A stretch of DNA of 64,000 nucleotides from Escherichia phage 348Ecol098PP, in the sequence record OR062947.1; one strand, written 5' to 3'. The position numbers were made by a program, and so were the translations under genes. Under the pieces are notes generated by a model. The model saw only the letters and a list, made by a program, of their open reading frames with translations. It was not told where the DNA came from and did no database searches. This document shows positions 3,051-51,237 of the stretch, in pieces. Every line of letters starts with the position of its first letter. The first letter of the stretch is position 1.

Positions 3051-3052
3051 AT

Positions 3053-3060
3053 TATAAATA
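3053..3060 (+). promoter_or_regulatory. late promoter core TATAAATA upstream of gene 49
   Basis: exact TATAAATA 30 nt upstream of the gene 49 ATG. Confidence 0.6.
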
Positions 3061-3083
3061 CCCTTATCTATTTAAGGTAAGGG
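3061..3083 (+). promoter_or_regulatory. RNA hairpin (CCCTTA / TAAGGG) overlapping the gene 49 Shine-Dalgarno
   Basis: 6-bp inverted repeat 3061-3066 / 3078-3083, right arm contains the AAGG RBS; late promoter would start transcription inside the left arm. Confidence 0.5.
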
Positions 3084-3089
3084 TTTATC

Positions 3090-3563
3090 ATGTTATTATC
3101 AGGCGCAAAATATAAAGAAGAAAAACAAAAATTTTATGATGCACAGAATGGTAAGTGTCCTATTTGCCACCGTGAATTAGACCCTGATGTTCAAGGTAAC
3201 CATCTTGACCACGACCATGAATTAAACGGGCCAAAAGCAGGTAGAGTTCGTGGGTTACTCTGTAATCTGTGCAATGCAGCAGAAGGTCAAATGAAGCATA
3301 AGTTCAACCGTTCCGGTCTTAAAAGACGTGATGTCGACTACCTCGAATGGCTTGAAGCTCTTCTTGCTTATTTGAAACAAGATTATTCTGATAATAATAT
3401 CCATCCTAATTTTGTTCCAGACAAAACTAAAGAGTTCTCAAGACTAGGTAAAGAGGAAATGATGTCCGAGATGCTTCAAAGAGGATTTGAATATAATGAA
3501 TCTGATACCAAAACACAATTAATAGCTTCATTCAAAAAGCAGCTTAGAAAGAGTTTAAAATGA
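3090..3563 (+). CDS. 49: endonuclease VII (Holliday junction resolvase)
   Basis: 157 aa; MLL.G..YKEEKQKFYDAQNGKC.IC.REL... HLDHDHELNGPKAG.VRGLLCNLCNAAEG matches T4 gp49 recalled from memory. Confidence 0.92.
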   Translation: MLLSGAKYKEEKQKFYDAQNGKCPICHRELDPDVQGNHLDHDHELNGPKAGRVRGLLCNLCNAAEGQMKHKFNRSGLKRRDVDYLEWLEALLAYLKQDYSDNNIHPNFVPDKTKEFSRLGKEEMMSEMLQRGFEYNESDTKTQLIASFKKQLRKSLK

Positions 3564-4381
3564 ATGTAGTATATAAACTATCATTTATTAATAGAATTAA
3601 TGCTAAAACCCCACCATATTATTACATTGGAAGTAAAACCAATTGCACTTTTGATGGAACGAATATTATTGATAAAAATGGTAAATTTTATTATTCGTCT
3701 TCGTCATCTTCCGAATTTCAAAAAGCCTTATTGAAAGAAACGCCGAAAGTTGAAATATTATATTTTCAATTAGTCGGAGATGAACAAATAACTAGCATTG
3801 AAGCTGAATTTCAAAAGAATATAGAAAAAGATGTATGGAATAAAGAGTATTTTAATTTAGCATATGCTGATGGCAAATTTACGACATATGGTATTTCTCC
3901 TTCTAAAGAAACTAGAGAAAAACAATCAATAACCATGATTAAAAGAAATCGTAATAAAGGCAAAAATCATGGATTTTATGGAAAGCATCATACTAATTTA
4001 GCCAGAAAGAAAATATCAGAAGCTTCTAAAAAATACTGGAAAGAAAATCCGCATCGTGGATTTTCGCATACAAAGGAAGCTAAAATTAAAATTGGAATTT
4101 CATCTTCTATCAGGCATAAAGGAAGTGGAAATCCGATGTATGGTGTAAAACCTTGGAAAACTCCGAACGCAATTAAATCTGGTACTTGTATATTATGGTT
4201 AAAATACGCAGAAATTTTATATGATTATTTAGGTCCAGATTTTAAAAGTAAATCATCTATTTTTGCGGATTTAAACTTACCGAAATTTAGAATTGATAAT
4301 TTCATCAAAAGGTTTAAAATGGGTTGGAACCCATATTTAGACGAAGAATTTCAAAAGGATAAATTAGAATTATGTCTTTAG
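3560..4381 (+). CDS. freestanding homing endonuclease-like protein (GIY-YIG-like N-terminus, NUMOD-like repeats)
   Basis: VYKLSF...YYIGSKTN near N-terminus; repeated GKNHGFYGKHHT / GSGNPMYGVKPW modules; sits between 49 and nrdD. Confidence 0.6.
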   Translation: MNVVYKLSFINRINAKTPPYYYIGSKTNCTFDGTNIIDKNGKFYYSSSSSSEFQKALLKETPKVEILYFQLVGDEQITSIEAEFQKNIEKDVWNKEYFNLAYADGKFTTYGISPSKETREKQSITMIKRNRNKGKNHGFYGKHHTNLARKKISEASKKYWKENPHRGFSHTKEAKIKIGISSSIRHKGSGNPMYGVKPWKTPNAIKSGTCILWLKYAEILYDYLGPDFKSKSSIFADLNLPKFRIDNFIKRFKMGWNPYLDEEFQKDKLELCL

Positions 4382-8713: not shown

Positions 8714-8953
8714 ATGGAACAAGAATTAGACATTACTACATCGAAAAAACGTCTTGAAGTCGTAGTGAATGGTTCAACTATTAAGTTTGTATATGACACT
8801 TTAACTGATGCTATTACCGTTAGTTGTGGTGGAAAGGCTTTTAGTCTAGATTCTACTGAAAACAAATACCCGTTCTATAAAGGTATCTTTGATATGGGTG
8901 TTGATATCAGTGTTCGTCAAGCAAACTATTTACATTATCTTATCACGAAATAA
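8714..8953 (+). CDS. hypothetical protein
   Basis: ORF track; RBS GAGGAAAA. Confidence 0.6.
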   Translation: MEQELDITTSKKRLEVVVNGSTIKFVYDTLTDAITVSCGGKAFSLDSTENKYPFYKGIFDMGVDISVRQANYLHYLITK

Positions 8954-8982
8954 TGCACAAACTCTTGAGAGCAGAGTATAAT
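8954..8982 (+). promoter_or_regulatory. early-type promoter with hairpin-forming spacer (copy 1 of a 34-bp element)
   Basis: TGCACA-N18-TATAAT; spacer contains TGAGAGCA/TGCTCTCA inverted repeat; identical element at 53806-53839. Confidence 0.4.
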
Positions 8983-9019
8983 GCTCTCATTGGATAATAA
9001 AACAACCGAGGAAAATAAT

Positions 9020-9352
9020 ATGTCTACTAAAATCAAAAACGTAGTTAATTCTTTCGCTTTCGATAAAGTTGTTGCTCTTCTGGAATCCGGCAATATTGTT
9101 ACTCCTCAAGTTCTTGACGCGTGGGAATTCCGTCTTTATGAAATCATGCAAAAACACGACCAGAAAATTGGACGTAATTCTATTCGCGAAATTCTAGTAC
9201 AATATATTCTTTCTGAATTTGACGTTGCTGCATTTGGTGTTGAATCTAAAGCTTATCAGAAACATGAAATCTCTGAAAAAACTATCCGTCGTATGAAAAA
9301 TCAACGTAAGAAAAAATTCGTTGACCTGAAAATTGTTAAGGCGGTAAAATGA
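9020..9352 (+). CDS. hypothetical protein
   Basis: ATG 9020 with GAGGAAAATAAT RBS. Confidence 0.6.
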   Translation: MSTKIKNVVNSFAFDKVVALLESGNIVTPQVLDAWEFRLYEIMQKHDQKIGRNSIREILVQYILSEFDVAAFGVESKAYQKHEISEKTIRRMKNQRKKKFVDLKIVKAVK

Positions 9353-9576
9353 GCGTATTAACAGAAACTTTGATTAATGACCTGCGTCTAGCTGGTTACG
9401 AAGTTGGTACAAATAGCCTAGGTCTTCCTCAGATTGAAGGGCCTGGATTTATTCTAGAATACGAATTCAAACAATGGTGGTTATATGCTACGGTTGACGA
9501 TGCGTTGAATATTGATTTCGTTGACCAATTTGATTCGTTGGATGCTGCCTTATTTGCAGCAAAGGAAATAGAATGA
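9349..9576 (+). CDS. hypothetical acidic protein
   Basis: ORF track; ATGA coupling. Confidence 0.55.
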   Translation: MSVLTETLINDLRLAGYEVGTNSLGLPQIEGPGFILEYEFKQWWLYATVDDALNIDFVDQFDSLDAALFAAKEIE

Positions 9577-9731
9577 AACTATCTTGAATCGCTATAACCG
9601 AAGAAAAGTTTGGTGAATTTTAAGTCGACAACTTTATGAAAGTTACGTATCTTTGATAGTATCTCGTGCTTTAAGATAGGTCTCTAAATATTATGATATA
9701 ATAGACCTATGAATTGAGCCAAGAGGTACTT

Positions 9732-10289
9732 ATGACTGAACAAAAACCTAAAAATAACTATGTGAATAATAAAGAGCTTCTCGCCGCTATAATCGAGTGG
9801 AAAAAGGAGCTCTTAAATAATAAAGACCCAAACAAAATTATTCGTCAGAATGATACCATCGGTTTAGCAATTATGCTTATCGCCGAAGGCCTGTCCAAAC
9901 GTTTCAACTTTTCAGGATATACCCAGTCTTGGAAGCAGGAGATGATTGCAGATGGGATTGAAGCCTCTATTAAGGGACTTCATAATTTCGACGAAACTAA
10001 GTACAATAACCCACATGCATACATAACTCGAGCTTGTTTTAATGCCTTTGTCCAACGTATCAAAAAAGAACGTAAGGAAGTTGCAAAGAAATATAGTTAC
10101 TTCGTTCATAATGTCTACGACAGTCATGACGATGATATGGTAGCGTTGGTAGATGAAACGTTTATTCAAGACATCTACGATAAAATGACGCATTATGAAG
10201 AATCCGCTTATAAAGCTCCTGGGGCTGAAAAGAAGGAAGTTGTTAGCGATTCGCCTAGTTTGGATTTTTTATATGAGGATGACAATTGA
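9732..10289 (+). CDS. 55: late-transcription sigma factor gp55
   Basis: NYVNNKELL...[48 protein letters not shown] matches T4 gp55; ATG 9732 after AAGAGG RBS. Confidence 0.92.
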
Positions 10290-21408: not shown

Positions 21409-22044
21409 ATGAAAACTACTCCTATTACTATCGCTATTGACGCAATCATAAAACAATCTTCTTCTTTGGCCGCTATGGCCAAAGTAATTAGTCAAAACCC
21501 TGCTCGTTATAATGCTATTCTAGAAACTCTTCGACGTCCGGGACTTAGTAATTATGAAAGTCGTGTAATTATTACAGGTGTTGGTAAGAATGCTAATATT
21601 GCAACTAAAGCTTCTGAGACATTTGCTTCACTCGGTATCCCGAGTATGTACTTGAACACTGGGCATTATTCTCACGGCGATGCAGGATTCATTGCGCCTA
21701 ATGATGTGTTGATTCATATTAGTCGTTCTGGTAAAACTGAAGAAATGATAGGCGTGGCTAAGCATCTTAAAATGATTCGACCGAACGTCAAACAGATTCT
21801 GTTGCATTGTAACCCAGACATTCCACAAGAAAATGAAGCCCTTTTTGATTACTCTTTCTGTACAGGCATCGCAGTAGAGGTTGATGAGAATTCTCTGGCT
21901 CCGACTATGTCCACTACATTGTTGTTAGCGCTTATCGATACGTTTGCTATCAACCTTTCGTCTGAACGTGGATTTACCTCTAATGATTTCCTTAAGTTCC
22001 ATCCAGGCGGTGCACTAGGTGCCATGTTACGAGGCGAGCAATGA
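21409..22044 (+). CDS. SIS-domain sugar-phosphate isomerase, KdsD/KpsF/GutQ-type arabinose-5-phosphate isomerase-like (no CBS domains)
   Basis: GVGKNANIATKASETFASLGIPSMYLNTGHYSHGD, ISRSGKTEE, LAPTMSTTLLLAL, RGFTSNDFLKFHPGGALG match the API SIS-domain pattern from memory. Confidence 0.75.
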   Translation: MKTTPITIAIDAIIKQSSSLAAMAKVISQNPARYNAILETLRRPGLSNYESRVIITGVGKNANIATKASETFASLGIPSMYLNTGHYSHGDAGFIAPNDVLIHISRSGKTEEMIGVAKHLKMIRPNVKQILLHCNPDIPQENEALFDYSFCTGIAVEVDENSLAPTMSTTLLLALIDTFAINLSSERGFTSNDFLKFHPGGALGAMLRGEQ

Positions 22045-22184
22045 AAGCAATAACAATAGGACTTTTACTATTGATGCTTGTCATGACTATCTACTGGAGC
22101 TTAACGGCTCCAGTAATGATTCCAACACTTGTAATTGGATGGATTATGATTGGACTACAAGCAAAGTATGAATGCTTTAACTAG
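22041..22184 (+). CDS. small hydrophobic protein (47 aa, single/double TM)
   Basis: manual translation; ATGA overlap with isomerase stop. Confidence 0.4.
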   Translation: MKAITIGLLLLMLVMTIYWSLTAPVMIPTLVIGWIMIGLQAKYECFN

Positions 22185-22225
22185 AATAGTGTACAATACT
22201 CCTACTTACCAATGAGGACCACAAC

Positions 22226-23911
22226 ATGAAAAAAGCTGTTATTCTTGGTGCTGGACTAGCAACTCGTTTGTATCCAATAACGCATCATATTCCTAAGGTG
22301 CTTGTTAACTATAAACAAGACACTATTCTGAGCAATTTGTATACAATTTATTCTGACCTTGGCGCAGATGAAATTATTGTAGTAGTTCATTCAAAATTTG
22401 CTGGAACTGTTCGAGCTTATTGTGAGCAAGAAGGGTTCAATGTGACTATTCGTACAGTTGATGAAGCGTATGGTTCTGCTTATGCTCTTGCTAAATTGCA
22501 CAAAGATTTAGACGGCCATAATGTAATTGTTAACTGGTGTGATATTATTCCTGATTTTGGTTCATGGTCTTGGAATGTTAACGCAATCTATGTTAAGGGT
22601 GACGAATGTCGATATAATTTCGACGGTGAAAATATCACTAACGTAGGTTCAACAGGTGGTAATGTTGTAGGAATTTACCAGTTCAAAGACTGGGAATTCT
22701 ATATGGGTTCTACCGATGAGGAAATTCATGAATACTGCAAAGGACGTGATTTCGTAGAATTCCTTTACGGCAGTGCATTCAATAAATCAGAGCTTATGAA
22801 TCTAATTGATTTAGGTGATATGCCTAAACTTGAAAAGGCTCATGAAGTTCGTGAACTTAATCGTAGTTTTAATGCAGTTGAAATTGGTGAAGAAACTGTA
22901 ACTAAATTCGCATTAACCGAACAAGGCCGAGCTCTTCAGAAAGATGAGATTTCATGGTATCTTAAAGTGAAATCAGATTCAGTTCCTCAGTTAGTTTCTG
23001 TTAATGAAAATAACTTTGAAATGGAACGCATTAAAGGTAAGCCGGCATTTGAATATATTAAATCCAAATCGAGTCTCGCTCGTCCACAAATTGTTGATGC
23101 AATTTTAGATGCACTGAAATTCAGCACAGACACTTATTTTGTAAGTCCTGAAACTGTTCGTCGTGATTTCACTAAAGAATTCTATACGAAAGTTATTGAT
23201 CGTTGTGAAAGTATTCAACCATTGATTGATTCATTTGGTAAAATAACACATGTGAACTACACTAAGATTGGGCGTCTGAAGCCAATGTTGAAACAAGCTT
23301 TAGAACACCTTATTCGTTATCATAACCGTTCTCAGGGACAGTACTCTGTTATTCATGGTGACCCGAACTTCAGTAATACTATGATTACTGATAATGGCGA
23401 AGTCAAGTTTATCGACCCTCGTGGATATTTTGGTGAAACCAAGATTTACGGGCCAAAATTGTATGATGAAGCTAAAGTGCTTTACGCTGTTTCAGGATAT
23501 GATGAATTCAACGCTAATCCGACCTGGGGGCAGTTTACTATTGATGAAACAACTTGTAATGTGACTATTAACATCAATCCATTAGTTTACAAATATGGAA
23601 AGATGAGTTCGTTTAACGAGTATCATCATTTGGCGGTGGCAATTATCTGGATTGCATTAGGTGGTTATTTCAAGAATAATCCACTTAAAGCGGTAGCCGC
23701 ATATTATAAAGGTATGGAACTTCTGACTAAGCAATTACGTAACATGGGCCGTGTACTTCAGGACGGCACCATTAGTTATGACGTAGCAGAACCTGTAACG
23801 GCTACTCTGATTACAAAAAATCCTGGTAAATGGGTACTAACTGATAAAGAAACTGGTGTTTCCTATCGTCCAATCGGTGGCGATATCACTCATCAATGGG
23901 AACGAATCTAA
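22226..23911 (+). CDS. bifunctional sugar-1-phosphate nucleotidyltransferase / sugar anomeric kinase (APH/choline-kinase fold) fusion
   Basis: N-terminal AVILGAGLATRLYPIT..PK nucleotidyltransferase signature; C-terminal IHGDPNFSN and FIDPRG kinase motifs. Confidence 0.75.
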   Translation: MKKAVILGAGLATRLYPITHHIPKVLVNYKQDTILSNLYTIYSDLGADEIIVVVHSKFAGTVRAYCEQEGFNVTIRTVDEAYGSAYALAKLHKDLDGHNVIVNWCDIIPDFGSWSWNVNAIYVKGDECRYNFDGENITNVGSTGGNVVGIYQFKDWEFYMGSTDEEIHEYCKGRDFVEFLYGSAFNKSELMNLIDLGDMPKLEKAHEVRELNRSFNAVEIGEETVTKFALTEQGRALQKDEISWYLKVKSDSVPQLVSVNENNFEMERIKGKPAFEYIKSKSSLARPQIVDAILDALKFSTDTYFVSPETVRRDFTKEFYTKVIDRCESIQPLIDSFGKITHVNYTKIGRLKPMLKQALEHLIRYHNRSQGQYSVIHGDPNFSNTMITDNGEVKFIDPRGYFGETKIYGPKLYDEAKVLYAVSGYDEFNANPTWGQFTIDETTCNVTININPLVYKYGKMSSFNEYHHLAVAIIWIALGGYFKNNPLKAVAAYYKGMELLTKQLRNMGRVLQDGTISYDVAEPVTATLITKNPGKWVLTDKETGVSYRPIGGDITHQWERI

Positions 23912-24297
23912 TGCACCGTGTAGAAAACATGCTTAATCTTTGTTTTGATGTCGATGATTGTATAACAGAGTGGAATAACAATCGTGATTACGTGAACTTC
24001 AAACCAGACGTCGAAATGGTGTCTGCCATTAATGCCCTATATGATGCAGGGCATACCATAACGCTTTACACTGCTCGCGGTATGAAGTCAGTAGGTCCTG
24101 GTCGTATAGCAATTGACATTCTCCCAAGTCTGATTCAGAACTTGGCAAACATTGGCTTGAAGTACCATAATTTGCTAACACATAAACCAGTATATGATTG
24201 GATTATCGACGACAAAGCTATGCGTCCTGACGAATTCAAAGCTCTTATGAATAAAGGCGAATTCGAAACATTTAAATCATATAAACCGAATCTATAA
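23911..24297 (+). CDS. HAD-superfamily phosphatase
   Basis: motif I FDVDDCIT near N-terminus; TAATG overlap with upstream stop; ORF-track frame. Confidence 0.65.
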   Translation: MHRVENMLNLCFDVDDCITEWNNNRDYVNFKPDVEMVSAINALYDAGHTITLYTARGMKSVGPGRIAIDILPSLIQNLANIGLKYHNLLTHKPVYDWIIDDKAMRPDEFKALMNKGEFETFKSYKPNL

Positions 24298-24351
24298 TAA
24301 TTTAAGTAAGACCTGCAAAAACCATCGCAACAATTAACGCGAGATGCAAAA

Positions 24352-25512
24352 ATGAATACCTTTAAAATCGGAACGAATTTTGATTTAGCTCTTCTTGATA
24401 AAATCGTAGAGCTCAATAAAACTTATCCTAATAGCTTGATAAACGAAGTATACGGCTCTACAAGAGAAATGGCTTTTGTAGCAGCCAGACCTGATTTTAG
24501 GCTTCCTGACGTTGACAAAAAGATGTTAGAAGATTACGTTAAACGTTGTAACGAATTAGGTATTTGCTTTAACTATACACTCAACACGATAAATCCTGGT
24601 TCAAAAAGAGAACTAGTTGAGTGGAAGAAGAAAGCTATTCAGGATTATGTTCAGTATCTTTGGTCAATAGGCGTATGGCGTATTACTATCGCTAACCCTG
24701 TTGTTATGGAAATTGTTCGTGAAGTCAATAAAGACATTGAGATTGAAGTTTCAACAATTCTACATGTCGATGCTGTAACTCAAATCAAATACTTGCATGA
24801 CCAATATAATATCAAAAAGGTCTGCTGTGGAATTCATAAGAACCGTTCAGTTTCTTTCCTGAAGCGTGCAGCAGAGTTTTGCAATAAGAACAATATAATA
24901 TTTGAAGTTCTCGTAAATGAATTCTGCTCTAATGCTGGTAAAGGGTATACAACACATTGTAGTTATCGTGACTCTTGCTATATTTTCCATAGCACCGATG
25001 TTACAGTAGATGATGCCAAATCCTTAAATGGATATCCTATGCAGCACTGTATTAAAGCTCGTGATACAGACCCATTTAACTGGTTGAGAACTCGTTTTGT
25101 TCGTCCTCAAGATTTGAAACTTTATAATGATATTGGTATCACTCAATTCAAAGTTTCAGGACGTACAGGTAGCACCGACTACATTTTGAAAGTTCTTGAA
25201 GCTTATGCTTCTGAAAAGTTTGAAGGTAATTTGTTGGAATTGTGGAAGCCTTTAGAGACTATTTTCACTCTTGAAAATGAGACCGAGTTTTCACATACGG
25301 TAAATATTGAAACCTCTTTGTTAGATGGCTTTTTAGAAAAAAGGTGGTTCAAACATCCAGATTTCGATTGTGCTAATGAAATCTGCGGGACGACGTGTAC
25401 ATATTGTGAAAGATATTATAAACGTCAGTTATCTAAAAATGGGTTAGCAGAAAACTCTATATCTATTATTGATATAACTAACTCTGATGACGCTTTGAGG
25501 TACCCGGAATGA
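24352..25512 (+). CDS. peptidase-U32-family (TIM barrel, Cys-rich) protein
   Basis: NEVYGSTREMAFVAARPDF, ICFNYTLNTINPG, EFCSNAGKGYTTHCSYRDSC resemble U32 proteins as recalled from memory. Confidence 0.5.
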   Translation: MNTFKIGTNFDLALLDKIVELNKTYPNSLINEVYGSTREMAFVAARPDFRLPDVDKKMLEDYVKRCNELGICFNYTLNTINPGSKRELVEWKKKAIQDYVQYLWSIGVWRITIANPVVMEIVREVNKDIEIEVSTILHVDAVTQIKYLHDQYNIKKVCCGIHKNRSVSFLKRAAEFCNKNNIIFEVLVNEFCSNAGKGYTTHCSYRDSCYIFHSTDVTVDDAKSLNGYPMQHCIKARDTDPFNWLRTRFVRPQDLKLYNDIGITQFKVSGRTGSTDYILKVLEAYASEKFEGNLLELWKPLETIFTLENETEFSHTVNIETSLLDGFLEKRWFKHPDFDCANEICGTTCTYCERYYKRQLSKNGLAENSISIIDITNSDDALRYPE

Positions 25513-25790
25513 TTTCTAGAAAAACTTTTAACCACCAACTTAATGAAGAGATTTTGACTATGAAAATTAACAGCAACGAACAAATTCTTAAAAAGGCCCT
25601 TATGGGCCTGTTTGAAACTAAAGCGGCTAAAGTGATTAAAGAAACCTGTTCAACTAGAATACTACGCTGATGCATTTCTTCATAGTGTTCTTGGAAGTAT
25701 CGATGCTGAAGCTTTACGTTATATCAACATCGCTAAGAAATTCAAATAAGCTTTATGAATTGAGTATATAATAACTGTATTGAGGTAAAC

Positions 25791-26507
25791 ATGGGAAAAC
25801 ATAACACAATGAAATATATTAAAGCCGCAGATTTTCAATCCGCATTTAAAGCTGTCAATCGTGAAATTTTAGAAAATCCACAGTTCGTTACTGACTCTCG
25901 TATTGGACGTTGTAATGAAATTGGGTCTATGACAGTAGTTGTTGATACCCCTTCATCATTCAAAATGACCGACCCACGTATTAATCGCATCTCTTATGAA
26001 TATGCTGAAGATTTCTGGAAATTTATGATTTCTGGTGGTACTGATGCAGAAGAAGCATTTAAGGCATATCCTAACGTTGCTAAATTTATTTCTAAACCTA
26101 AATCAGATGCTTTGCCTGCAAACTTCAACACTTTCTACGGTCCACGAATTGCGGCCCAGTTACCAGCTCTTCTCAAAGAACTTAAAGAGAAACCTAATTC
26201 ACGAAGAGTTGTGTTTCAAATTCTTGAAAGTTCAGATCAGGCTTTGCTTGATTCGGATGAAACACTTGAATATCCATGTACTGACTCAGTGACTTATTAT
26301 ATTCGTGATGGTAAGCTTTATACCCACTGTCATATGCGTTCTCAGAACTGTGCTGTTGTTATGCAGTTGGATTTTTATCTCCAAGGAAAATTACTTCATT
26401 ATATCGCTAACGAATGTGGTGTAGAAGTTGGTGATTATACTCATACCATGGTAAGTGCCCATGTGTTTGAACGTGATTTTGATTATGTTAAAGGATTCCT
26501 TGACTAA
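25791..26507 (+). CDS. 42: dCMP hydroxymethylase (thymidylate-synthase fold)
   Basis: PNSRRVVFQI and YPCTDSVTYYIRDGKLYTHCHMRSQN align with the SRR and catalytic Cys regions of T4 gp42. Confidence 0.8.
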   Translation: MGKHNTMKYIKAADFQSAFKAVNREILENPQFVTDSRIGRCNEIGSMTVVVDTPSSFKMTDPRINRISYEYAEDFWKFMISGGTDAEEAFKAYPNVAKFISKPKSDALPANFNTFYGPRIAAQLPALLKELKEKPNSRRVVFQILESSDQALLDSDETLEYPCTDSVTYYIRDGKLYTHCHMRSQNCAVVMQLDFYLQGKLLHYIANECGVEVGDYTHTMVSAHVFERDFDYVKGFLD

Positions 26508-27406
26508 TGGCTATTTTCCGCGTACCTATCTTGAGTATGCGGTCTTATGAAACTGGACAGTATGCTATCCTTAAGGATGGCAACTTCCAACTTCATTTGC
26601 ACCGTGCTAATCCGGGTGATGTGATTACATATCCACGTAATGCATCTGATATTAAAGAATGTGAACGTCTTTTCCCAGAATTTAAGTTTGTTCCATTATG
26701 GTATAAAGATAACGCATATAACACTCGTAAATATTTCTGGTCTGAAAATGAATTTGTGGTTGATTCATTAATTGATTATTATGATTGTGATTTTCTAATC
26801 ACAGATATCACTGGATATGACGGTACTTTTGACGTAGAATTCAATTTCAATATCACTGCAGACCCTAATAAACCACGTTTTTATATTGACGAATTCTTAA
26901 AAACCGATATGTTGTCGGTTAATCGTTCACTTCAAACTACTGTGTTGAATAAACGTCAAAAGGAAGTGCTGGTTAACGCTGGTGCCGATGGTAATAAGAT
27001 TATCGTAACCCAGAAAGTTATACGTCCTTCCATCATGCAGCGTCTTGTAGGTGATTTGGCTCCTATTCATCTAGATGGTATTTTTCATCCATTTCGAATT
27101 AGTGATCCGTGCTATCGTTTTGAACAAGTGGTTGAATGCGCGATTCAATTAGGTCAACCGCTTTATATAACCGATCCAAATAATAGCTTCGACAGAAATA
27201 AGTATCCTGAAGAAGCGTTGATTCGAATTTTTAAACCAACTAAAACTGAGTACTATCAAATTCTTAAAGGACGACCGAAGATTCAATATTTCGAAAATCC
27301 TGAAGAAGTATTTCATCCAGGTCTTGGTGAGTTCATCTACTTTAACGCTTTAATTTCTTCGCCGTATAATATACCTAAATATGAAGATGTCGTAATCGAG
27401 GAATAA
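26507..27406 (+). CDS. hypothetical protein (299 aa) in the syntenic slot of T4 beta-glucosyltransferase; function unknown
   Basis: ORF track; TAATG coupling to gene 42; no recognisable beta-gt similarity. Confidence 0.8.
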   Translation: MAIFRVPILSMRSYETGQYAILKDGNFQLHLHRANPGDVITYPRNASDIKECERLFPEFKFVPLWYKDNAYNTRKYFWSENEFVVDSLIDYYDCDFLITDITGYDGTFDVEFNFNITADPNKPRFYIDEFLKTDMLSVNRSLQTTVLNKRQKEVLVNAGADGNKIIVTQKVIRPSIMQRLVGDLAPIHLDGIFHPFRISDPCYRFEQVVECAIQLGQPLYITDPNNSFDRNKYPEEALIRIFKPTKTEYYQILKGRPKIQYFENPEEVFHPGLGEFIYFNALISSPYNIPKYEDVVIEE

Positions 27407-27407
27407 A

Positions 27408-27956
27408 ATGGCTAAAATTATTTTAGTAGATGGCCCAGATAATGCTGGTAAAACAACTTTCATTAATGACATAATGGAAATTAGTGAAAGATATGTAAAG
27501 ATTGATTTCCCTAAACGAACAGTTGATGGACGTTTCGATGTTAAGTCTCGAAATGAAGTTGGCTGTTTCGAAACGATGTTGAATTATTTAGACCCTACTA
27601 AGATTTATCTGTTAGACCGTGGATATATTAGTAACTGGGTTTATGGACGTATTCGACAAGACGCGGACTCGGTTCTTGACGTTTATGAACAGGATTATGT
27701 TCGTCTTTGCCAAAACCATGATGTGTTCACAATTATTTTAACACGTAACGAAATGACTGAAAGTTTTGAAGACGACCTTATTACTTTGTCTTCATTCGGT
27801 TTTAATACAGTCATTTCACATTTTGAAGAGTTTGCAATTCATAACAAAATCCAAACGTATCAATTACTTAATCATGATGGTGCTAACAAAGTTATAGGAT
27901 TTAATGCAAGCGAACGTAATGATTTGATTACAGAAATCATCAAATGGGCTCGTTAA
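27408..27956 (+). CDS. P-loop kinase (thymidylate/nucleoside-monophosphate kinase-like)
   Basis: Walker A ILVDGPDNAGKTTF; size 182 aa; GAGGAA RBS. Confidence 0.7.
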   Translation: MAKIILVDGPDNAGKTTFINDIMEISERYVKIDFPKRTVDGRFDVKSRNEVGCFETMLNYLDPTKIYLLDRGYISNWVYGRIRQDADSVLDVYEQDYVRLCQNHDVFTIILTRNEMTESFEDDLITLSSFGFNTVISHFEEFAIHNKIQTYQLLNHDGANKVIGFNASERNDLITEIIKWAR

Positions 27957-45757: not shown

Positions 45758-47575
45758 ATGATTAAAAATGAAATTAAGGTATTGTCAGATGTAGAACATA
45801 TTAAGAAACGTAGTGGTATGTATATTGGTTCTTCTGCTAAAGAAGCACATGAGCGTTTTTTGTTTGGTAAATATCAACAAGTTGAATATGTTCCTGGTCT
45901 GGTTAAATTAATCGATGAGATTATTGACAACTCGGTTGATGAAGCTATTCGTACATCATTTAAGTTTGCAAATAAAATTGATGTGCAAATTAAAAATAAT
46001 CAAGTTTCGGTGGAAGATAACGGACGTGGTATTCCTCAAGGTTTAGTTACCGACCAAACAGGTGAACAAATTCCTGGGCCTGTAGCAGCCTGGACTATTC
46101 CAAAGGCCGGTGGTAACTTTGGTGATGACTCTGAACGCAAGACTGGTGGTATGAACGGCGTCGGGAGTAGTTTAACTAATATCTTCTCTACGTTGTTTAC
46201 AGGCATCACGTCAGATGGCGAAAATGAAATCACTGTTAACTGTTCAAACGGAATGGAAAACAAATCATGGTCTTCTAAGAAATCTAAAGGTAAAGGCACT
46301 AAAGTAATCTTCACTCCTGATTTCACTTCATTTGAAGAGCATAATTTATCTCAAATTTATTTAGATATTACTTTAGACCGACTTCAAACATTGGCAGTCG
46401 TTTATCCTGATATCAAGTTCACATTTAATGGTAAAAAGGTTGATGGTAATTTTAAACGATTTGCTAAACAATTTGGTGAAGATAACATCATTCAAGAAAA
46501 TGATAAAGTCTCTATAGCATTCACAACATCACCAGATGGCTTCCGTCATTTAACTTATGTGAATAACATCCATACTAAAAATGGTGGCCATCATGTTGAA
46601 TGTGTAATGGATGATATCTGCGAACATCTTTTGCCCGGTATTAAAAAGAAATATAAGGGTATTGAAGTCACTAAAGCTCGTGTTAAAGAATGCCTCACAA
46701 TGTTGATGTTTATTAGAGACATGAGCAACATGCGTTTTGATTCTCAGACTAAAGAACGTTTAACGTCAACGTATGGTGATATTCGTAATCATATCCAATT
46801 AGATGCTAAGAAAATTGCTCAGGCACTTCTTAAAAACGAAGCCTTGATTATGCCTATTGTTGAAGCCGCATTAGCTCGTAAATTGGCGGCAGAAAAGGCT
46901 GCAGAAACTAAAGCAGCTAAAAAGGCAACTAAAGCTAAGGTTCATAAACATATTAAAGCTAACCAATGTGGTAAAGATGCAGATACGACATTGTTCTTAA
47001 CAGAAGGTGATTCTGCAATTGGTTATCTCATTGATGTTCGTGACCGTGAACTACACGGCGGATTCCCATTACGTGGTAAGGTGATGAATAGCTGGGGTAT
47101 GTCATATGCTGATATGATGAAGAACAAAGAGCTCTTTGATATCTGTGCTATCACGGGTCTTATTCTTGGTGAAAAGGCAGAGAATACGAACTATCGTAAT
47201 ATTGCAATTATGACCGATGCCGATCATGACGGTCTTGGAAGTATCTATCCGGCTTTGCTTGCTTTCTTTAGTAATTGGCCTGAATTGTTTGAACAAGGAC
47301 GTATTCGCTTTGTTAAAACACCTGTAATTATTGCACAAATTGGCAAAGCTCAAAAATGGTTTTATACTGTAGCTGAGTATGAAGAAGTTAAAGATACACT
47401 GCCTAAGCATAGTATTCGATACATCAAGGGATTAGGCTCCCTTGAAAAGTCAGAATATCGTGAAATGATTCAGAACCCTGTGTACGACGTAGTTAAACTT
47501 CCTGAAAATTGGAAAGAACTCTTTGAAATGTTGATGGGTGATGATTCAGAACTTCGTAAAGAATGGATGTCCTAA
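45758..47575 (+). CDS. 39: DNA topoisomerase II large subunit (GyrB-like), single 605-aa ORF corresponding to fused T4 39+60
   Basis: GHKL ATPase N-terminus; TOPRIM region in the same ORF; no interruption. Confidence 0.92.
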   Translation: MIKNEIKVLSDVEHIKKRSGMYIGSSAKEAHERFLFGKYQQVEYVPGLVKLIDEIIDNSVDEAIRTSFKFANKIDVQIKNNQVSVEDNGRGIPQGLVTDQTGEQIPGPVAAWTIPKAGGNFGDDSERKTGGMNGVGSSLTNIFSTLFTGITSDGENEITVNCSNGMENKSWSSKKSKGKGTKVIFTPDFTSFEEHNLSQIYLDITLDRLQTLAVVYPDIKFTFNGKKVDGNFKRFAKQFGEDNIIQENDKVSIAFTTSPDGFRHLTYVNNIHTKNGGHHVECVMDDICEHLLPGIKKKYKGIEVTKARVKECLTMLMFIRDMSNMRFDSQTKERLTSTYGDIRNHIQLDAKKIAQALLKNEALIMPIVEAALARKLAAEKAAETKAAKKATKAKVHKHIKANQCGKDADTTLFLTEGDSAIGYLIDVRDRELHGGFPLRGKVMNSWGMSYADMMKNKELFDICAITGLILGEKAENTNYRNIAIMTDADHDGLGSIYPALLAFFSNWPELFEQGRIRFVKTPVIIAQIGKAQKWFYTVAEYEEVKDTLPKHSIRYIKGLGSLEKSEYREMIQNPVYDVVKLPENWKELFEMLMGDDSELRKEWMS

Positions 47576-47590
47576 GCTCCTTCGGGAGCT
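47575..47590 (+). terminator. UUCG tetraloop hairpin after gene 39
   Basis: AGCTCC-TTCG-GGAGCT. Confidence 0.4.
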
Positions 47591-47617
47591 TCATTTTAAT
47601 TTTAATAAGGCTTAATT

Positions 47618-48718
47618 ATGAAAGTTATGTTTATCCCATCTCGTGCAGTCCCATTTAACCCAGAACGTGTACAAGGTGGTCTTGAAGCAGTACATTTAAA
47701 TGTGTTGAAATATCTTGTGTCCATCGGTGCTGATATTGATTATATCGGCTTTGATAATGACACATTTGGTGATTGGAAGGTTAATCATCATCCTGTTGGT
47801 CATCTGACTAAATTCAGTCTAGGTATGAGTTATACTATGGCTCGTAAGATTGTTGAACTGGCCGGCATCCATGAATACGATTTTGTTGTTACTATGGAAC
47901 CGACTAAACTAACCGTTCAGGCAATTAAAGACGCAGGTCTCTCTAAAGTTCATAAGAATTTTATGGCAACACCATTTGAACCTGTATCTCGTGGCATTGT
48001 TCAAATTTGGGACCAGACTATTCAAATTCATAAGAATGGCGGTAAGAGTTATGCTCCTACTAAAGCCTTCCGTGAATTTGAACGCAAATATTGTTATATG
48101 ACTTCAGGTCTGACTGACAAAATCGATTATGATTATTGGCGAGCAAATCCGTTGTTTGAAGCCGAAGATTATCCGGTTATTTGTTTGAATGAGAAACCTG
48201 AAGTTCTTCCGGCGACGGATCTGATTATTAGTGCACAACGTTATGACACTAAAATGCGTCGTACTGATGTTGCTCTTGAAGCGATTAAAGCACTAGGCGA
48301 AAATGGTGCAGGATACTGTCCAAGCAAATGGGCGCCACCAGCTAAATATCCTGTTATTATCGATGCTCCACACAGTGAAATCATGGAACGTCTTAAAACA
48401 GCTAAAGCACTTATTAATACGTGTCCTGACACAGGTACGGTAGAGAATAGTTCTATTGAAGCCATCTCTAAAGGTGTCCCTGTAATCCAGTTAGTTTTTA
48501 AGGATTATCCTCATGCGACATTCGAATACGACCCAGATACTGTGCGTGTAGAAATTGATTCCTCTACTCCTAAGAAAGAAGTAGTTGCGCTTTACACAAA
48601 AGCTGTATTAGAATTCACTGACACATACGAAGCTCGAGTTAAACGTGCTGAAGCAGTATGGAAGAAGTATAACCGAGATGCAGTTGTTGCGATGTGGGAT
48701 AAAATCTTCACAGCGTAA
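47618..48718 (+). CDS. GT-B-fold glycosyltransferase (GT4-like); candidate DNA hmC sugar transferase
   Basis: N-terminal MKVMFIPSRAVPFNPERVQGGLEAVHLNVLKYL and C-terminal TGTVENSSIEAISKGVPVI resemble GT4 signatures. Confidence 0.6.
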   Translation: MKVMFIPSRAVPFNPERVQGGLEAVHLNVLKYLVSIGADIDYIGFDNDTFGDWKVNHHPVGHLTKFSLGMSYTMARKIVELAGIHEYDFVVTMEPTKLTVQAIKDAGLSKVHKNFMATPFEPVSRGIVQIWDQTIQIHKNGGKSYAPTKAFREFERKYCYMTSGLTDKIDYDYWRANPLFEAEDYPVICLNEKPEVLPATDLIISAQRYDTKMRRTDVALEAIKALGENGAGYCPSKWAPPAKYPVIIDAPHSEIMERLKTAKALINTCPDTGTVENSSIEAISKGVPVIQLVFKDYPHATFEYDPDTVRVEIDSSTPKKEVVALYTKAVLEFTDTYEARVKRAEAVWKKYNRDAVVAMWDKIFTA

Positions 48719-48810
48719 ATCCTGAATAGCCTGAGGCACTATTACACATAAGATGATAGATTATATGGTCTTTAGTAATAGTGCCCTAGGAATCTACTGA
48801 AGAGAATATT

Positions 48811-49011
48811 ATGAGAACATATAACGTGGACTTGGAACTTTTTGATAAAGCGGTGCTCCGGGAATTCCGGCTTATCCAAAGATTTTTTGATATCGAATCA
48901 GCAGAGTCCTTTAAAGAACGCTTTAAAGAAATTCGATATAAAATACAAACCGATACAGCTACTAAAGAAGAACTTCTCGAAGTAGCAGAAATTTTTAAAC
49001 GTAACTTGTGA
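48811..49011 (+). CDS. hypothetical protein (rIIA.1 position)
   Basis: ORF track; GAAGAGAATATT RBS. Confidence 0.55.
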   Translation: MRTYNVDLELFDKAVLREFRLIQRFFDIESAESFKERFKEIRYKIQTDTATKEELLEVAEIFKRNL

Positions 49012-49023
49012 TGAGAGAAAAAT

Positions 49024-51237
49024 ATGATTATTGAAACGGCTAAAGAAACGATTATTGGTTCAGGCGGTAAGAGCACAGCATTCACTATTCAAGGCAATAG
49101 CAAAGTTTATAAGATTTTGTCTAATGACCTTTATACAAACAAAGAATTGGCTTGTGTACGTGAATTAATCACAAACTGTATCGATGGACAAATTCTTAAC
49201 GGTTGCACTGATAAGTTTATTGTTCAGGCTCCAGGTCGTTTAGACCCACGTTTTGTAGTTCGAGACTTTGGTCCTGGTATGAGTGATTTCACCATTCGAG
49301 GTAATGACGAAGAGCCAGGAATCTATAACTCATATTTTGCTTCAACTAAAACATCGAGTAATGATTTCATTGGTGGATTCGGACTCGGCTCTAAAGCTCC
49401 ACTAGCATATACCGATACGTTTAACCTTACGTCTTATCACAACGGTGAAGTTCGTGGTTACGTAATCTACCAAGATGACACAGGTCCACAAATTAAGCCA
49501 ACCTTTGTAGATAAGATGGGTCCTGATGACCGTACGGGTGTAGAAGTAGTTGTACCGGTTAACCCAGAAGATTTTGAAAAGTTCGCATCTGAAATTGCAT
49601 ATGTTATGCGTCCTCTAGGTGATATTGCAGAAGTTCGCGGTGTTAAAGATATTAAATACTTTCCTGAATTTGACGATGTATATTTGGCCAAGGAAGCTCC
49701 ATGGGGTGAACGTGGTAATATCATGGCCGTTTATGGTGGTATTGTATATCCAATCGGAAGTGTTATTAAAGAACAAACATGGATGATGACACGATGCACT
49801 ACAGCTTATATTAAATTCCCAATGGGTGAACTAGATGTTGCTCCGTCTCGCGAAGCATTGTCATTTGATAAACGTACAGTAGCAAATATCCATAAACGCG
49901 TTGCAGAAATCGATGCTAAATTGTTCGCTGAAGATTCTAAGAAATGGATTGATTGTAAATACCCACGACATGTGTTCCGCGAAATTGATTCTCTTGGCTA
50001 TACCGCTCGTAAATACATGGAAAAGGCCGGGTCTAATATTGAATCACTGAAATACTCTAAAGAACAACTAACTTATTCTGAGTTGTACAAACGTTTTAAA
50101 ATGGGACCTGAGTGGTGTAATCTTGGTGTCGTATACGATATCGTTGAATCCCCTCGTCTTCGTCGTATTCGTGAAAGTGGTAGCTCATCATCAACCATTT
50201 CAATTAACAGCCTGATTGGCATTAACATTAAAAACGTTGAAATTGTTATTGACGATGTTAAGGGACGCGTTCCATTAATGCGAGCTCTTAATTCAATTGA
50301 AATGTCTAAAGACGAGGTTAAATTATCCGGTAAAGTTCCACGCGGTTTTGGTAAAAGCGTACTATTCGTTGACCCTACAGACGAAGATGCAATGAAACTT
50401 CTGGAACGCCTTAAAGTTATCTTTGATGGCGACAACATTAACATATACAAGACTTCAGAGCTTTTACAAATCGTTAAGCCATGGATTGAAGTCAGGAAAC
50501 GGACTAATGAGCCTCGTCCTAAATCCCCGAGTGCTCATCGATTCTTTAAGAATGAAAACGATGTTTGGGTATCAGAAGACCTCTTTATTCCGGCAAGTGA
50601 AGCAGATGAAATCCAAGGTTATGCTATAGTTCGTAATCGTTCTAATGCTGAATGTCTTGACGCAGATAAAGGTTGGTTGAACTATGACTCCAATTTCTTG
50701 ACCCGTATTGCTGATTTGTCAGGTATTAAAGAGTTCACTGTAGTTCGTCCACAGATTGCTAAGAAAGTTCGTAAACTTGGTGAAGTAGAATGCTTGTTCG
50801 AAAAATCAATTAATGACTATATTACGCTAATTGATAAAGTGGATTATGATGAGTATGTATCACCAAGTCGTAGAGCACAGCCTTATTTGAATCATATTAC
50901 TCGTAACGAAGAGCTTAACTTCCTTAGTAAGTATTTTAGCTCTAAGAACAAAGAAATCAGTAAAGACTTTGCAAAACTCTCAACAGTAAATAATCGTTGG
51001 GGATGGAATCGATTCGCAGGTGCTACTAATACAGACCTGAATAAGAAGTTAGAATTGTGTGCTAAAATTTTCGATAAGCTTAAAGATAATGCTTACGATA
51101 ATGATGATAAAATGGTTATTGAATTCGAAACCAATTATCATATTGTGTCAGAATACATGGGACGACGTGGTACTCTTTCCAAAGAACAGGTCGCTCAAAT
51201 CGTTAAATTCGTGAAGGCCGTGGAAGCGGCCAAATAA
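49024..51237 (+). CDS. rIIA: rIIA (membrane-associated GHKL ATPase-like protector from prophage-induced early lysis)
   Basis: 737 aa; N-terminal GHKL motifs (ELITNCIDG, GGFGLGSKAP); synteny with rIIB. Confidence 0.92.
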   Translation: MIIETAKETIIGSGGKSTAFTIQGNSKVYKILSNDLYTNKELACVRELITNCIDGQILNGCTDKFIVQAPGRLDPRFVVRDFGPGMSDFTIRGNDEEPGIYNSYFASTKTSSNDFIGGFGLGSKAPLAYTDTFNLTSYHNGEVRGYVIYQDDTGPQIKPTFVDKMGPDDRTGVEVVVPVNPEDFEKFASEIAYVMRPLGDIAEVRGVKDIKYFPEFDDVYLAKEAPWGERGNIMAVYGGIVYPIGSVIKEQTWMMTRCTTAYIKFPMGELDVAPSREALSFDKRTVANIHKRVAEIDAKLFAEDSKKWIDCKYPRHVFREIDSLGYTARKYMEKAGSNIESLKYSKEQLTYSELYKRFKMGPEWCNLGVVYDIVESPRLRRIRESGSSSSTISINSLIGINIKNVEIVIDDVKGRVPLMRALNSIEMSKDEVKLSGKVPRGFGKSVLFVDPTDEDAMKLLERLKVIFDGDNINIYKTSELLQIVKPWIEVRKRTNEPRPKSPSAHRFFKNENDVWVSEDLFIPASEADEIQGYAIVRNRSNAECLDADKGWLNYDSNFLTRIADLSGIKEFTVVRPQIAKKVRKLGEVECLFEKSINDYITLIDKVDYDEYVSPSRRAQPYLNHITRNEELNFLSKYFSSKNKEISKDFAKLSTVNNRWGWNRFAGATNTDLNKKLELCAKIFDKLKDNAYDNDDKMVIEFETNYHIVSEYMGRRGTLSKEQVAQIVKFVKAVEAAK

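Follow-up and report, generated by a model that had tools for sequence, protein, structure and literature searches.

A glycosyltransferase gene near rIIA of Escherichia phage 348Ecol098PP as the probable second-step DNA arabinosyltransferase of a 5-hydroxycytosine pathway

The closest functional analogue of the protein analysed here is the beta-1,6-glucosyl-alpha-glucose transferase of phages T2 and T6, which makes gentiobiosyl-hmC. In both cases a second phage glycosyltransferase would extend a sugar already present on a modified cytosine in DNA; the T2/T6 enzyme works with hmC, glucose and UDP-Glc, whereas the present one would work with 5-hydroxycytosine (5hoC), D-arabinofuranose (D-Araf) and UDP-Araf. 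The chemistry of gentiobiosyl-hmC has been described (PMC13390438) and 'T2 ba-gt' is mentioned in PMC6024577. It is established that RB69 DNA carries mono- and di-arabinosyl-5hodC, the disaccharide being beta-D-Araf-(1->3)-alpha-D-Araf-O5-dC (PMC13326640), and the DNA of the Mosigvirus NP and of Bas46/47 is likewise di-arabinosylated (PMC13390438). Thanatos is reported to have mono-arabinosylated DNA and a single glycosyltransferase, and in Acinetobacter phages of the DLP3 type the sugar is a trisaccharide in which two linkages are beta (PMC13326640). In RB69 and Mosigvirus DNA the arabinose is ether-linked directly to the C5 oxygen (PMC13390438, PMC13326640), and the hmC assignment for RB69 was erroneous (PMC13390438). 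The alpha, base-proximal arabinose has been attributed to a glycosyltransferase of the RB69 gp46:47 type, encoded in the sugar-donor island, and the beta, second arabinose to RB69 gp3 (PMC13326640, PMC13390438). A role as 'beta-arabinosyltransferase 2' was proposed for gp3 (PMC13326640; the same role in PMC13390438), and in PMC13326640 the words 'confirmed experimentally' are given only to steps other than that of gp3. Many restriction enzymes and CRISPR systems are kept off Mosigvirus DNA by its arabinosylated 5-hydroxycytosine, and the same modification creates new targets for type IV systems (PMC13326640, PMC13390438, PMC12923530); therefore, the number of sugars bears on host range and on the choice of therapeutic phages.

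In the present study, we analysed a window of 64,000 nucleotides from Escherichia phage 348Ecol098PP (OR062947.1), which is a Mosigvirus, and within it a gene for a glycosyltransferase (GT) that lies downstream of the topoisomerase gene 39 (45758-47575). The features at this locus are the following.

47574..47591, + strand: hairpin AAGCTCC-TTCG-GGAGCTT with a 7-bp stem and a TTCG loop, separating gene 39 from the GT gene and with a T-rich tract on its 3' side
47606..47610, + strand: putative Shine-Dalgarno-like TAAGG, 7 nt 5' of the ATG of the GT gene, proposed from sequence alone
47618..48718, + strand: GT gene; its 366-aa product is a GT-B glycosyltransferase with RB69 ORF003c/gp3 and the phage HY126 glycosyltransferase as orthologs

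The open reading frame starts with ATG and is a genuine conserved phage gene, not a chance reading frame. Compared with RB69 it shows 17 synonymous and 2 non-synonymous differences (dN/dS 0.03), and it is found at 90% nucleotide identity or more in 163 phage records. The protein matches PHROG 8302 over residues 1-366 on profile positions 1-366 (E 9.4e-223) and PDB 9iqz at E 2.8e-249. Its identity is established: RB69 ORF003c/gp3 (NP_861693) is 99.5% identical over the full length with two substitutions, and the HY126 glycosyltransferase, of which an apo form (9IQZ) and a form with UDP (9IR0) were released on 2025-07-16, is 98.4% identical over the full length with six differences (E16D, N56T, Y160H, G164A, A231V and S315F). 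The gene is thus already known, described in RB69 and its relatives as that of a proposed second DNA arabinosyltransferase; gene, locus and companion island are the same as in HY126 and RB69, and nothing functionally distinct was found. A preliminary description of this DNA had pointed to an ORF near rIIA in the RB69 group with a link to arabinosylation, and this is indeed ORF003c of Thomas et al. 2018 (PMC6024577).

The two segments quoted in that description, MKVMFIPSRAVPFNPERVQGGLEAVHLNVLKYL at the N-terminus and ...TGTVENSSIEAISKGVPVI towards the C-terminus, are present in the protein exactly as given and show the strongest conservation within the family, the C-terminal loop being its conserved donor-site-like motif. 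Across relatives with 35-43% identity, G20, G21 and L22 are invariant, as are N267-T268-C269..G273-T274..E276..S279..E281-A282-I283..G286-V287-P288-V289, and none of the substitutions relative to HY126 or RB69 falls at a family-invariant position. Within this segment (TGTVE-NSSI-EAISKGVPV) the invariant E276 and E281 are separated by four and not seven residues, and the EA-I/L-x-x-G-x-P-V half resembles the E-x7-E motif. The AF2 model (pLDDT 92.4, pTM 0.88) bears out the GT fold expected earlier: it is a GT-B fold with two Rossmann-like beta/alpha/beta domains and a cleft between them, and the HY126 structure 9IR0 matches it with a TM of 0.96. Binding of UDP is established for the 98%-identical HY126 protein in crystal form, and by this proxy the GT would bind a UDP donor. 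It would act as a soluble, UDP-sugar-dependent GT-B glycosyltransferase.

The companion genes are found in the same window. A UDP-arabinose/5-hydroxy-dCMP island, complete and intact, is located at 21409-27956 with the following members.

21409..22044, + strand: SIS-domain arabinose-5-phosphate isomerase, RB69 gp55 ortholog (Pfam SIS E 1e-10; RB69 annotation; PMC13326640)
22226..23911, + strand: bifunctional sugar-1-phosphate nucleotidyltransferase and kinase of RB69 gp52:53 / HY126 AfhE type (561 aa, intact)
23896..24297, + strand: HAD-like phosphatase of RB69 gp51 / HY126 AfhF type (orthology to RB69 gp51)
24352..25512, + strand: Peptidase-U32-family protein, RB69 gp50 ortholog (Pfam PF01136 E 6e-11; weak NCBIfam match UbiU)
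25791..26507, + strand: ThyA-like 5-hydroxy-dCMP synthase, RB69 gp48 ortholog (Pfam Thymidylat_synt; 236/238 residues identical to RB69 gp48)
26507..27406, + strand: island GT of RB69 gp46:47 type, the proposed first, alpha arabinosyltransferase (299 aa, intact; role according to PMC13326640)
27408..27956, + strand: thymidylate-type nucleotide kinase, RB69 gp45 ortholog (RB69 annotation; Table 1 of PMC13326640)

The product of 22226..23911 matches Pfam NTP_transferase, with weak kinase matches and an NCBIfam match. As summarised in PMC13326640, enzymes of the AfhE type make UDP-arabinofuranose and those of the AfhF type convert Araf-1,5-bisphosphate to Araf-1-phosphate. The U32-family protein occurs in 221 phage records, none of them from Acinetobacter phages. 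The island ends 19.7 kb, and its GT lies 20.2 kb, upstream of the GT gene at 47618-48718, in keeping with the preliminary description, which had placed the sugar-donor island about 20 kb away and the DNA sugar-modification system at two separate loci. The island GT has no Pfam, PDB-sequence or NCBIfam match; that it might be a paralog of the GT at 47618-48718 was rejected (BLASTP E = 3, no detectable similarity).

The same description proposed a candidate hmC-DNA sugar transferase. A DNA sugar-modification gene it is, but the base was wrong and the acceptor probably so. The ThyA-like enzyme of the window is nearly identical to RB69 gp48, a 5hodCMP synthase, and the 5-hydroxy chemistry is established for that ortholog, which was experimentally shown to make 5-hydroxy-dCMP and not hydroxymethyl-dCMP (PMC13326640). 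In comparison with the T4 dCMP hydroxymethylase gp42 the identity is only 25%, and the RSxD motif has Asn for the Asp of gp42 (HMRSQN vs NMRSND). This exchange corresponds to the D169N signature that predicts 5hodCMP synthases (PMC13326640). The enzyme matches PDB 9iqc, 9ir2 and 9iqu, in each case with an E value of 1e-160 or lower. The island has no gp42-type dCMP hydroxymethylase; its only ThyA-like gene is of the gp48 type.

Taken with the published assignments, we consider it probable that the GT is the second-step DNA arabinosyltransferase of Mosigvirus cytosine hypermodification and adds a beta-(1->3) Araf onto arabinosylated 5hoC DNA. The ThyA-like synthase (25791-26507) would first produce 5-hydroxy-dCMP in place of dCMP, the island enzymes would supply UDP-D-arabinofuranose, and the island GT (26507-27406) would attach an alpha-D-Araf to the C5 oxygen. 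The GT would then use UDP-Araf to place a second D-Araf on O3 of the first arabinose on the DNA, so that part of the cytosines would bear beta-D-Araf-(1->3)-alpha-D-Araf-O5-dC. Such a thicker sugar coat would be expected to form a further obstacle to restriction enzymes, CRISPR nucleases and sugar-specific defences. In this scheme we infer that the GT is the enzyme behind the beta-1,3 linkage, and also that its substrate is DNA and not a nucleotide.

An argument for the second step comes from the distribution of the two enzymes. The island GT was found in 348 phage records, from phages of Escherichia, Klebsiella, Serratia, Enterobacter, Proteus, Yersinia, Shewanella and Acinetobacter, and the RB69 gp3/HY126 family in only 211, namely Mosigviruses (one copy), Acinetobacter phages (two copies) and one Tegunavirus. 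About 137 records (348 vs 211) therefore have the island with its GT but no gp3-family member. Thanatos has the island GT, and no Shewanella record is among the gp3-family matches. The numbers of gp3-family copies in Thanatos, Mosigviruses and Acinetobacter phages (0, 1 and 2) equal those of beta-linked arabinoses (0, 1 and 2), and since none of the three groups lacks the island GT, the GT most likely adds the second arabinose to DNA that is already arabinosylated, in line with the 2026 proposal. The base itself, which had been taken as the acceptor, is probably not its substrate: the 2026 literature gives the alpha-arabinose to the island GT and the phyletic pattern agrees.

An alternative is that the GT is the primary DNA arabinosyltransferase, which puts the first arabinose onto 5hoC, while the island GT does something else. 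This was also the reading of the preliminary description, with hmC in place of 5hoC. In 2018, Thomas et al. put forward ORF003c, by HHpred and Phyre2, as 'the' arabinosyltransferase (PMC6024577), the Bas46 GenBank record names the ortholog 'putative hmC-arabinosyltransferase' and the island GT just 'hypothetical protein', and the crystallised GT of HY126 is this ortholog. The Thanatos ortholog of the island GT has been reported as a UDP-xylose pyrophosphorylase in vitro, not as a transferase, so that it is not fully certain which enzyme is the first transferase, and in vitro arabinosylation of 5hoC DNA has yet to be shown for any GT, the island type included (PMC13326640). We nevertheless judge this alternative unlikely, as the records with the island GT and without the gp3 family include Thanatos, whose DNA is pentosylated, the family copy number follows the beta-linked outer sugars and not the single alpha, base-proximal one, and the Acinetobacter paralogs work on DNA that is already arabinosylated.

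These paralogs bear on a second alternative. DLP3 gp76 and gp77 (represented here by their DLP2 orthologs ADLP2_047/048) are 41-43% identical to the GT over the full length, have the same invariant motifs and use UDP-Araf on arabinosylated DNA, and beta linkages are attributed to the family. In vitro the pair transfers an arabinose from UDP-Araf onto RB69 DNA; either one alone is inactive, and both are required even on DNA that bears the disaccharide (PMC13326640), hence a scheme of one enzyme for one linkage may be too simple. It is conceivable on this ground that the GT works only when complexed to the island GT or to some other protein of the phage, as a subunit for processivity or specificity, or on nucleotides, and has no independent second-sugar activity. 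We find this quite improbable, given that Mosigviruses have a single family copy and so lack a paralog partner, that none of the donor-site-like motifs varies and UDP is bound in the 98%-identical crystal structure, by which the GT appears catalytically competent, and that the Acinetobacter paralogs put arabinose on DNA in vitro. A non-DNA target, for example a small molecule, a protein or the glycans of the host envelope, is very improbable and was rejected on the co-occurrence of the family with the 5hoC/UDP-Ara island and its physical linkage to it in Acinetobacter phages; the nearest folds after HY126 do act on small molecules, lipids or polysaccharides and the GT is not basic (pI 6.3), but the paralogs modify DNA in vitro and T4 alpha-GT, which is proven to act on DNA, has an acidic pI as well (6.1).

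In the five Acinetobacter-type loci the gp3-family genes are contiguous with the island in 5/5, in the order API, bifunctional enzyme, HAD, ThyA, GT1, kinase, GT2a, GT2b. There the two tandem paralogs (56% mutual identity) together extend the chain to a trisaccharide, whereas the Mosigvirus GT is a single gene, separated from the island by about 20 kb, and the sugar chain ends at two units. The comparison with the island covered the phage genera with the family other than one Tegunavirus and a short contig from metagenomic data; there the family was found only in island-bearing genera. A phmmer search with the GT against 1.84 billion representatives gave 16 matches, about 10 of them real; a word-indexed search of a 5.8-billion set gave 5 clusters, and IMG/VR gave 7 loci. 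The family is tiny and no cellular ancestor can be named from these searches.

With regard to the class of the enzyme, no Pfam family at E<=10 (including GT4 / Glycos_transf_1 PF00534 and Glyco_trans_4) and no NCBIfam family at E<=1 matched the GT, a profile of 13 relatives found no GT except that of HY126 among all PDB sequences, and hhalign gave a probability of 0.3% against T4 alpha-GT (GT72) and T4 beta-GT (GT63). Membership in GT4, GT72 or GT63 is therefore not claimable from sequence. The T4 alpha-glucosyltransferase of GT72 (PDB 1Y6F/1XV5) showed no sequence homology to the GT, and the T4 beta-glucosyltransferase of GT63 neither sequence similarity nor close fold similarity. The top folds after HY126 were sucrose-phosphate synthase, tetrahydrobiopterin glucosyltransferase, BshA, PimA and WaaG, and the close structural neighbours are all retaining enzymes. 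These retaining GT4/GT5 enzymes (6KIH, BGluT 5ZER/9V0L, BshA 3MBO/6N1X, PimA 2GEJ, MshA 3C4Q and WaaG) are 10-14% identical to the GT and keep the alpha configuration of the donor, whereas the linkage attributed to the GT is beta and its proposed acceptor is a sugar borne on DNA. Retaining neighbours and a beta linkage can be reconciled only with the beta-anomer of UDP-D-Araf as donor. We offer as a tentative and rather doubtful extension that the GT is GT4-like and retaining yet forms beta-D-Araf with UDP-beta-D-Araf as donor, and that the island GT is inverting, as the base-proximal alpha linkage would then require. If true, one donor would serve two folds with opposite mechanisms. On the same tentative footing, the relocation of about 20 kb from the island in the Mosigviruses may allow separate expression of the GT, the GT may also be site-selective, and either could lead to only part of the cytosines receiving the second sugar.

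In the public records the protein is named 'hypothetical protein', 'ATP-binding protein', 'DNA alpha-glucosyltransferase', 'GDP-mannose-dependent ... mannosyltransferase' or 'putative hmC-arabinosyltransferase'. The name best supported at present is 'DNA arabinofuranosyltransferase, second sugar, 5-hydroxycytosine pathway'. The practical value for this window is a correct annotation, and the published picture is unchanged.

Finally, we examined the surroundings of the gene. rIIA (49024-51237) is located downstream as previously described, but it is not adjacent, as the 66-aa rIIA.1 ORF (48811-49011) lies between; the order gene 39, GT, rIIA.1, rIIA is the same in RB69 and Bas46. Sigma-70-like sites near the gene were at chance level (6 vs 5.8 expected), regex scans found no T4 late (TATAAATA) or MotA-box motif in 46900-49030, and Rfam had no match in 47300-49100. 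No timing of expression is claimed for the GT gene from these scans. The upstream terminator of the preliminary description is present as a hairpin with a T-rich run, but terminator-like sites are no more frequent than chance (1 in 1.9 kb vs 1.2 expected); therefore, only its position and its complete conservation in RB69 argue for a function, and it is a candidate terminator, attenuator or RNA-stabilising stem-loop. The hairpin begins at the final bases of the gene 39 stop codon, and its region is identical in RB69 at 66/66 positions.

The candidate glycosyltransferase (GT) gene, its surroundings and the distant gene cluster to which it may be linked are arranged in the window as follows.

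21409-27956: island, the UDP-arabinose/5-hydroxy-dCMP gene cluster, 19.7 kb upstream of the GT gene
22226-23911, + strand: nucleotidyltransferase/kinase, 561 aa
24352-25512, + strand: peptidase-U32-family gene, RB69 gp50 ortholog, inside the island
25791-26507, + strand: ThyA-like synthase, RB69 gp48 ortholog
26507-27406, + strand: island GT, 299 aa, RB69 gp46:47 type
47574-47591: stem-loop with a 7-bp stem and TTCG loop, then a T-rich run; begins in the last bases of the gene 39 stop codon
47618-48718, + strand: GT gene, ATG-initiated ORF, 366 aa
48811-49011: rIIA.1 ORF, 66 aa, 3' of the GT gene
49024-51237: rIIA, after rIIA.1

The ORF and the N- and C-terminal strings quoted in the preliminary description are exact, and the sugar-donor island that it postulated is real. 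Since 163 phage records share at least 90% nucleotide identity with the GT gene, the protein aligns with PHROG 8302 over its full length (E 9e-223), and the comparison with RB69 gives 2 non-synonymous and 17 synonymous changes (dN/dS 0.03), we regard this ORF as a real gene. The upstream terminator is present as a stem-loop and T-rich run. One site of this type in a 1.9-kb stretch is what chance would give; however, over the 66-nt junction between gene 39 and the GT gene, RB69 is 100% identical, against 7% divergence at the synonymous sites of the gene. rIIA does lie downstream as had been stated, with rIIA.1 in between, and the 92-nt intergenic region between the GT stop and rIIA.1 contains a 16-nt inverted repeat (CCTGAGGCACTATTAC / GTAATAGTGCCCTAGG; 88% complementary, spacer of 29 nt, 48730-48790 (+)), for which Rfam gave no match. 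The GT/rIIA.1 region is identical to RB69 at 105/106 positions, and the sole difference breaks a pair in RB69. Both intergenic regions beside the gene are more conserved than its synonymous sites (dS 0.07).

The GT protein is 99.5% identical to RB69 ORF003c/gp3 and 98.4% identical (6 substitutions) to PDB 9IQZ/9IR0, released in July 2025 and named in the fold library 'phage HY126 glycosyltransferase' and '...with UDP'. GenBank already contains the exact sequence from several Mosigviruses. Because of this near-identity and these exact copies, the window can be assigned to a Mosigvirus (RB69-like) genome, in reverse orientation to the RB69 reference. Judged by sequence, the protein is a member of the described RB69 gp3 / HY126 GT family (98-99.5% identity), and no departure from the published Mosigvirus arrangement is found anywhere in the window; the gene is therefore already known. 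In public records, its orthologs are labelled hypothetical protein, ATP-binding protein, DNA alpha-glucosyltransferase, glycosyltransferase, GDP-mannose-dependent alpha-(1-2)-phosphatidylinositol mannosyltransferase or putative hmC-arabinosyltransferase. For the neighbouring 5hodCMP synthase, the names 'dCMP hydroxymethylase' and 'thymidylate synthase' are widespread and outdated.

The AlphaFold2 model of the GT protein, with an input alignment of 13 relatives, is confident (pLDDT 92.4, pTM 0.88). In the Foldseek search against the PDB, the model matched 9IR0 with TM 0.96, followed by GT4-type GT-B enzymes (tetrahydrobiopterin glucosyltransferase, BshA, LmbT, PimA, MshA and WaaG; E 1e-12 to 1e-9, 10-14% identity). 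The GT-B fold suspected earlier is thus confirmed. The general architecture is common to GT4-like GT-B enzymes, and a sequence match to them is absent: no family in Pfam at E<=10 or in NCBIfam matches the protein, a gp3-family profile found no GT among PDB sequences besides the HY126 protein, and hhalign of the family with T4 alpha-GT and beta-GT gave a probability of 0.3%. phmmer against 1.84 billion representative proteins returned about ten relatives, and IMG/VR holds the family at seven loci. By these searches, it is an orphan outside all curated families. Residues invariant in relatives of 35-43% identity include G20-G21-L22, E94, T118-P119, R125, G142, Q207-R208-x-D210 and, C-terminally, N267-T268-C269, G273-T274-x-E276, E281-A282-I283, G286-V287-P288-V289 and H299-A300-T301; both motifs singled out in the preliminary description fall within them. 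Thomas et al (PMC6024577) aligned Gly-20, Arg-207 and Glu-281 of RB69 ORF003c with phosphate-/ribose-binding residues of T4 alpha-GT, and their Arg-207 is probably the invariant R208 in the present numbering.

The modified base had been taken as hmC, and this is out of date, since the ThyA-like synthase is identical at 236/238 residues to RB69 gp48, which makes 5-hydroxy-dC in vivo (PMC13326640), and carries the D169N signature of 5-hydroxy-dCMP synthases (Lee et al, NAR 2026, PMC13326640). It has Asn (HMRSQN) at the position of Asp (NMRSND) in T4 dCMP hydroxymethylase, to which it is only 25% identical, and it matches PDB 9IQC/9IR2/9IQU with E 1e-160 or better. The synthase needs O2, and purified gp48 contains loosely bound flavin (PMC13326640); for the HY126 homolog, the oxygen source is molecular O2 (He et al, as cited in PMC13326640). 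In RB69 DNA, 5-hydroxy-dC occurs with one or two arabinoses, and the disaccharide is beta-D-Araf-(1->3)-alpha-D-Araf, attached to C5 by an ether bond (PMC13326640). Kelly et al called the hydroxymethyl assignment for RB69 erroneous and found the same mono and di arabinosyl species in Mosigvirus NP (PMC13390438). Double arabinosylation has also been described for Bas46 and Bas47.

Two GTs, unrelated to each other (BLASTP E = 3), are present in both the window and RB69. According to a 2026 hypothesis, the island GT adds the base-proximal alpha-arabinose and gp3 the second, beta-linked one, the role of gp3 being a proposal rather than a demonstrated activity (PMC13326640, PMC13390438). The island GT and the nucleotidyltransferase/kinase are each one intact ORF in the window; the RB69 reference splits them (ORF046/047 and ORF052/053), which was put down to sequencing errors (PMC13326640), and the intact ORFs agree with that view. 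By tblastn, the island GT occurs in 348 phage records, with hosts in Escherichia, Klebsiella, Serratia, Enterobacter, Proteus, Yersinia, Edwardsiella, Providencia, Shewanella and Acinetobacter. Members of the gp3 family occur in 211 records, namely Mosigviruses (one copy), Acinetobacter phages (two each) and one Tegunavirus record, with no Shewanella record among them. Shewanella phage Thanatos, mono-arabinosylated with a single GT (PMC13326640), has the island GT (tblastn match H139), and the DNA sugar of DLP3-type Acinetobacter phages is a trisaccharide, linked once in alpha and twice in beta (PMC13326640). Hence 0, 1 and 2 gp3-family copies, in Thanatos, the di-arabinosylated Mosigviruses and the DLP3 type, equal the number of beta-linked outer arabinoses, and the island GT is constant. 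The two Acinetobacter paralogs share 56% identity, and 41-43% with the Mosigvirus protein. At all Acinetobacter-type loci they directly follow the island (isomerase, bifunctional kinase/uridylyltransferase, HAD phosphatase, ThyA-like, GT1, kinase, GT2a, GT2b), so that the functional link is also physical there. In vitro, DLP3 gp76 and gp77 together used UDP-Araf as donor to add an arabinose to RB69 DNA (PMC13326640). The gp3-type GT would act as a UDP-Araf-dependent transferase with arabinosylated DNA as acceptor, and these findings and the UDP in the HY126 crystal together support such a mechanism. The preliminary interpretation stands for a GT-B enzyme in a split DNA-glycosylation system; its base was wrong, and its acceptor probably so. 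In its proposed role, the gp3-type GT resembles the second-sugar transferases known from T-even phages, the analogue being the T2/T6 enzyme for gentiobiosyl-hmC.

Several points qualify this assignment. Singly, gp76 and gp77 were inactive, and arabinosylation of bare 5-hydroxycytosine DNA has so far been demonstrated for no enzyme (PMC13326640). Thanatos TH1_063, the island-GT ortholog, acted in vitro as a UDP-xylose pyrophosphorylase, and plasmid DNA received no transfer (PMC12838424). This conflicts with the island GT as first arabinosyltransferase, and may reflect a reverse reaction, a side reaction or the missing 5-hydroxycytosine substrate. The near structural neighbours of the GT protein are all retaining enzymes, whereas a beta linkage is assigned to it. 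Deletion of the Bas46 arabinosyltransferase ('Aat') reportedly makes the phage sensitive to a plasmid-borne defence. The deleted gene may be the gp3 ortholog, because this is the sole gene annotated as arabinosyltransferase in the Bas46 record.

The peptidase-U32-family gene of the island is unusually conserved (at least 80% protein identity in 221 records of Enterobacterales and Shewanella phages) and was found in none of the Acinetobacter-phage islands examined. Its only NCBIfam match is a weak one to UbiU ('ubiquinone anaerobic biosynthesis protein'), and the protein has Cys-rich motifs (EFCSNAGKGYTTHCSYRDSC and, C-terminally, CANEICGTTCTYC). U32-family proteins (RlhA, TrhP, UbiU/V) are O2-independent hydroxylation factors; in RNA, RlhA and TrhP form 5-hydroxy-C and 5-hydroxy-U without using O2. 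Acinetobacter is strictly aerobic. Since the ThyA-like synthase is O2-dependent, the U32 protein may, by analogy, serve phages of facultative anaerobes as an anaerobic back-up for making 5-hydroxycytosine. In published annotations it is only a 'sugar or heterocycle reductase' or an enzyme of UDP-arabinose biosynthesis (PMC13326640, Bas46 record).

Among outlying relatives of the GT protein, that of the one 'Tegunavirus' record is <60% identical. Two 'Yersinia' phage records have at least 90% nucleotide identity to the gene by megablast; the tblastn summary has no count under that name. Of the clear relatives, the one furthest from it in sequence is P0010 (394 aa, about 34-35% identity), encoded at 3040-4224 of locus L004 (JGI metagenome contig Ga0489998_000752). 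Its gene is located at the end of this short T4-like contig, with DNA ligase and DsbA-like genes before it and no arabinosylation island adjoining. At locus L011 (IMGVR_UViG_650627005_000001), the island has another order, ThyA, GT1 and kinase standing ahead of isomerase, bifunctional enzyme and HAD. One of its two tandem gp3-type paralogs (8846-9951) gave two tblastn pieces meeting at 9412, a probable sign of a frameshift or pseudogene, and resembles the split homolog p082-p081 of Acj9 (Thomas et al, PMC6024577).
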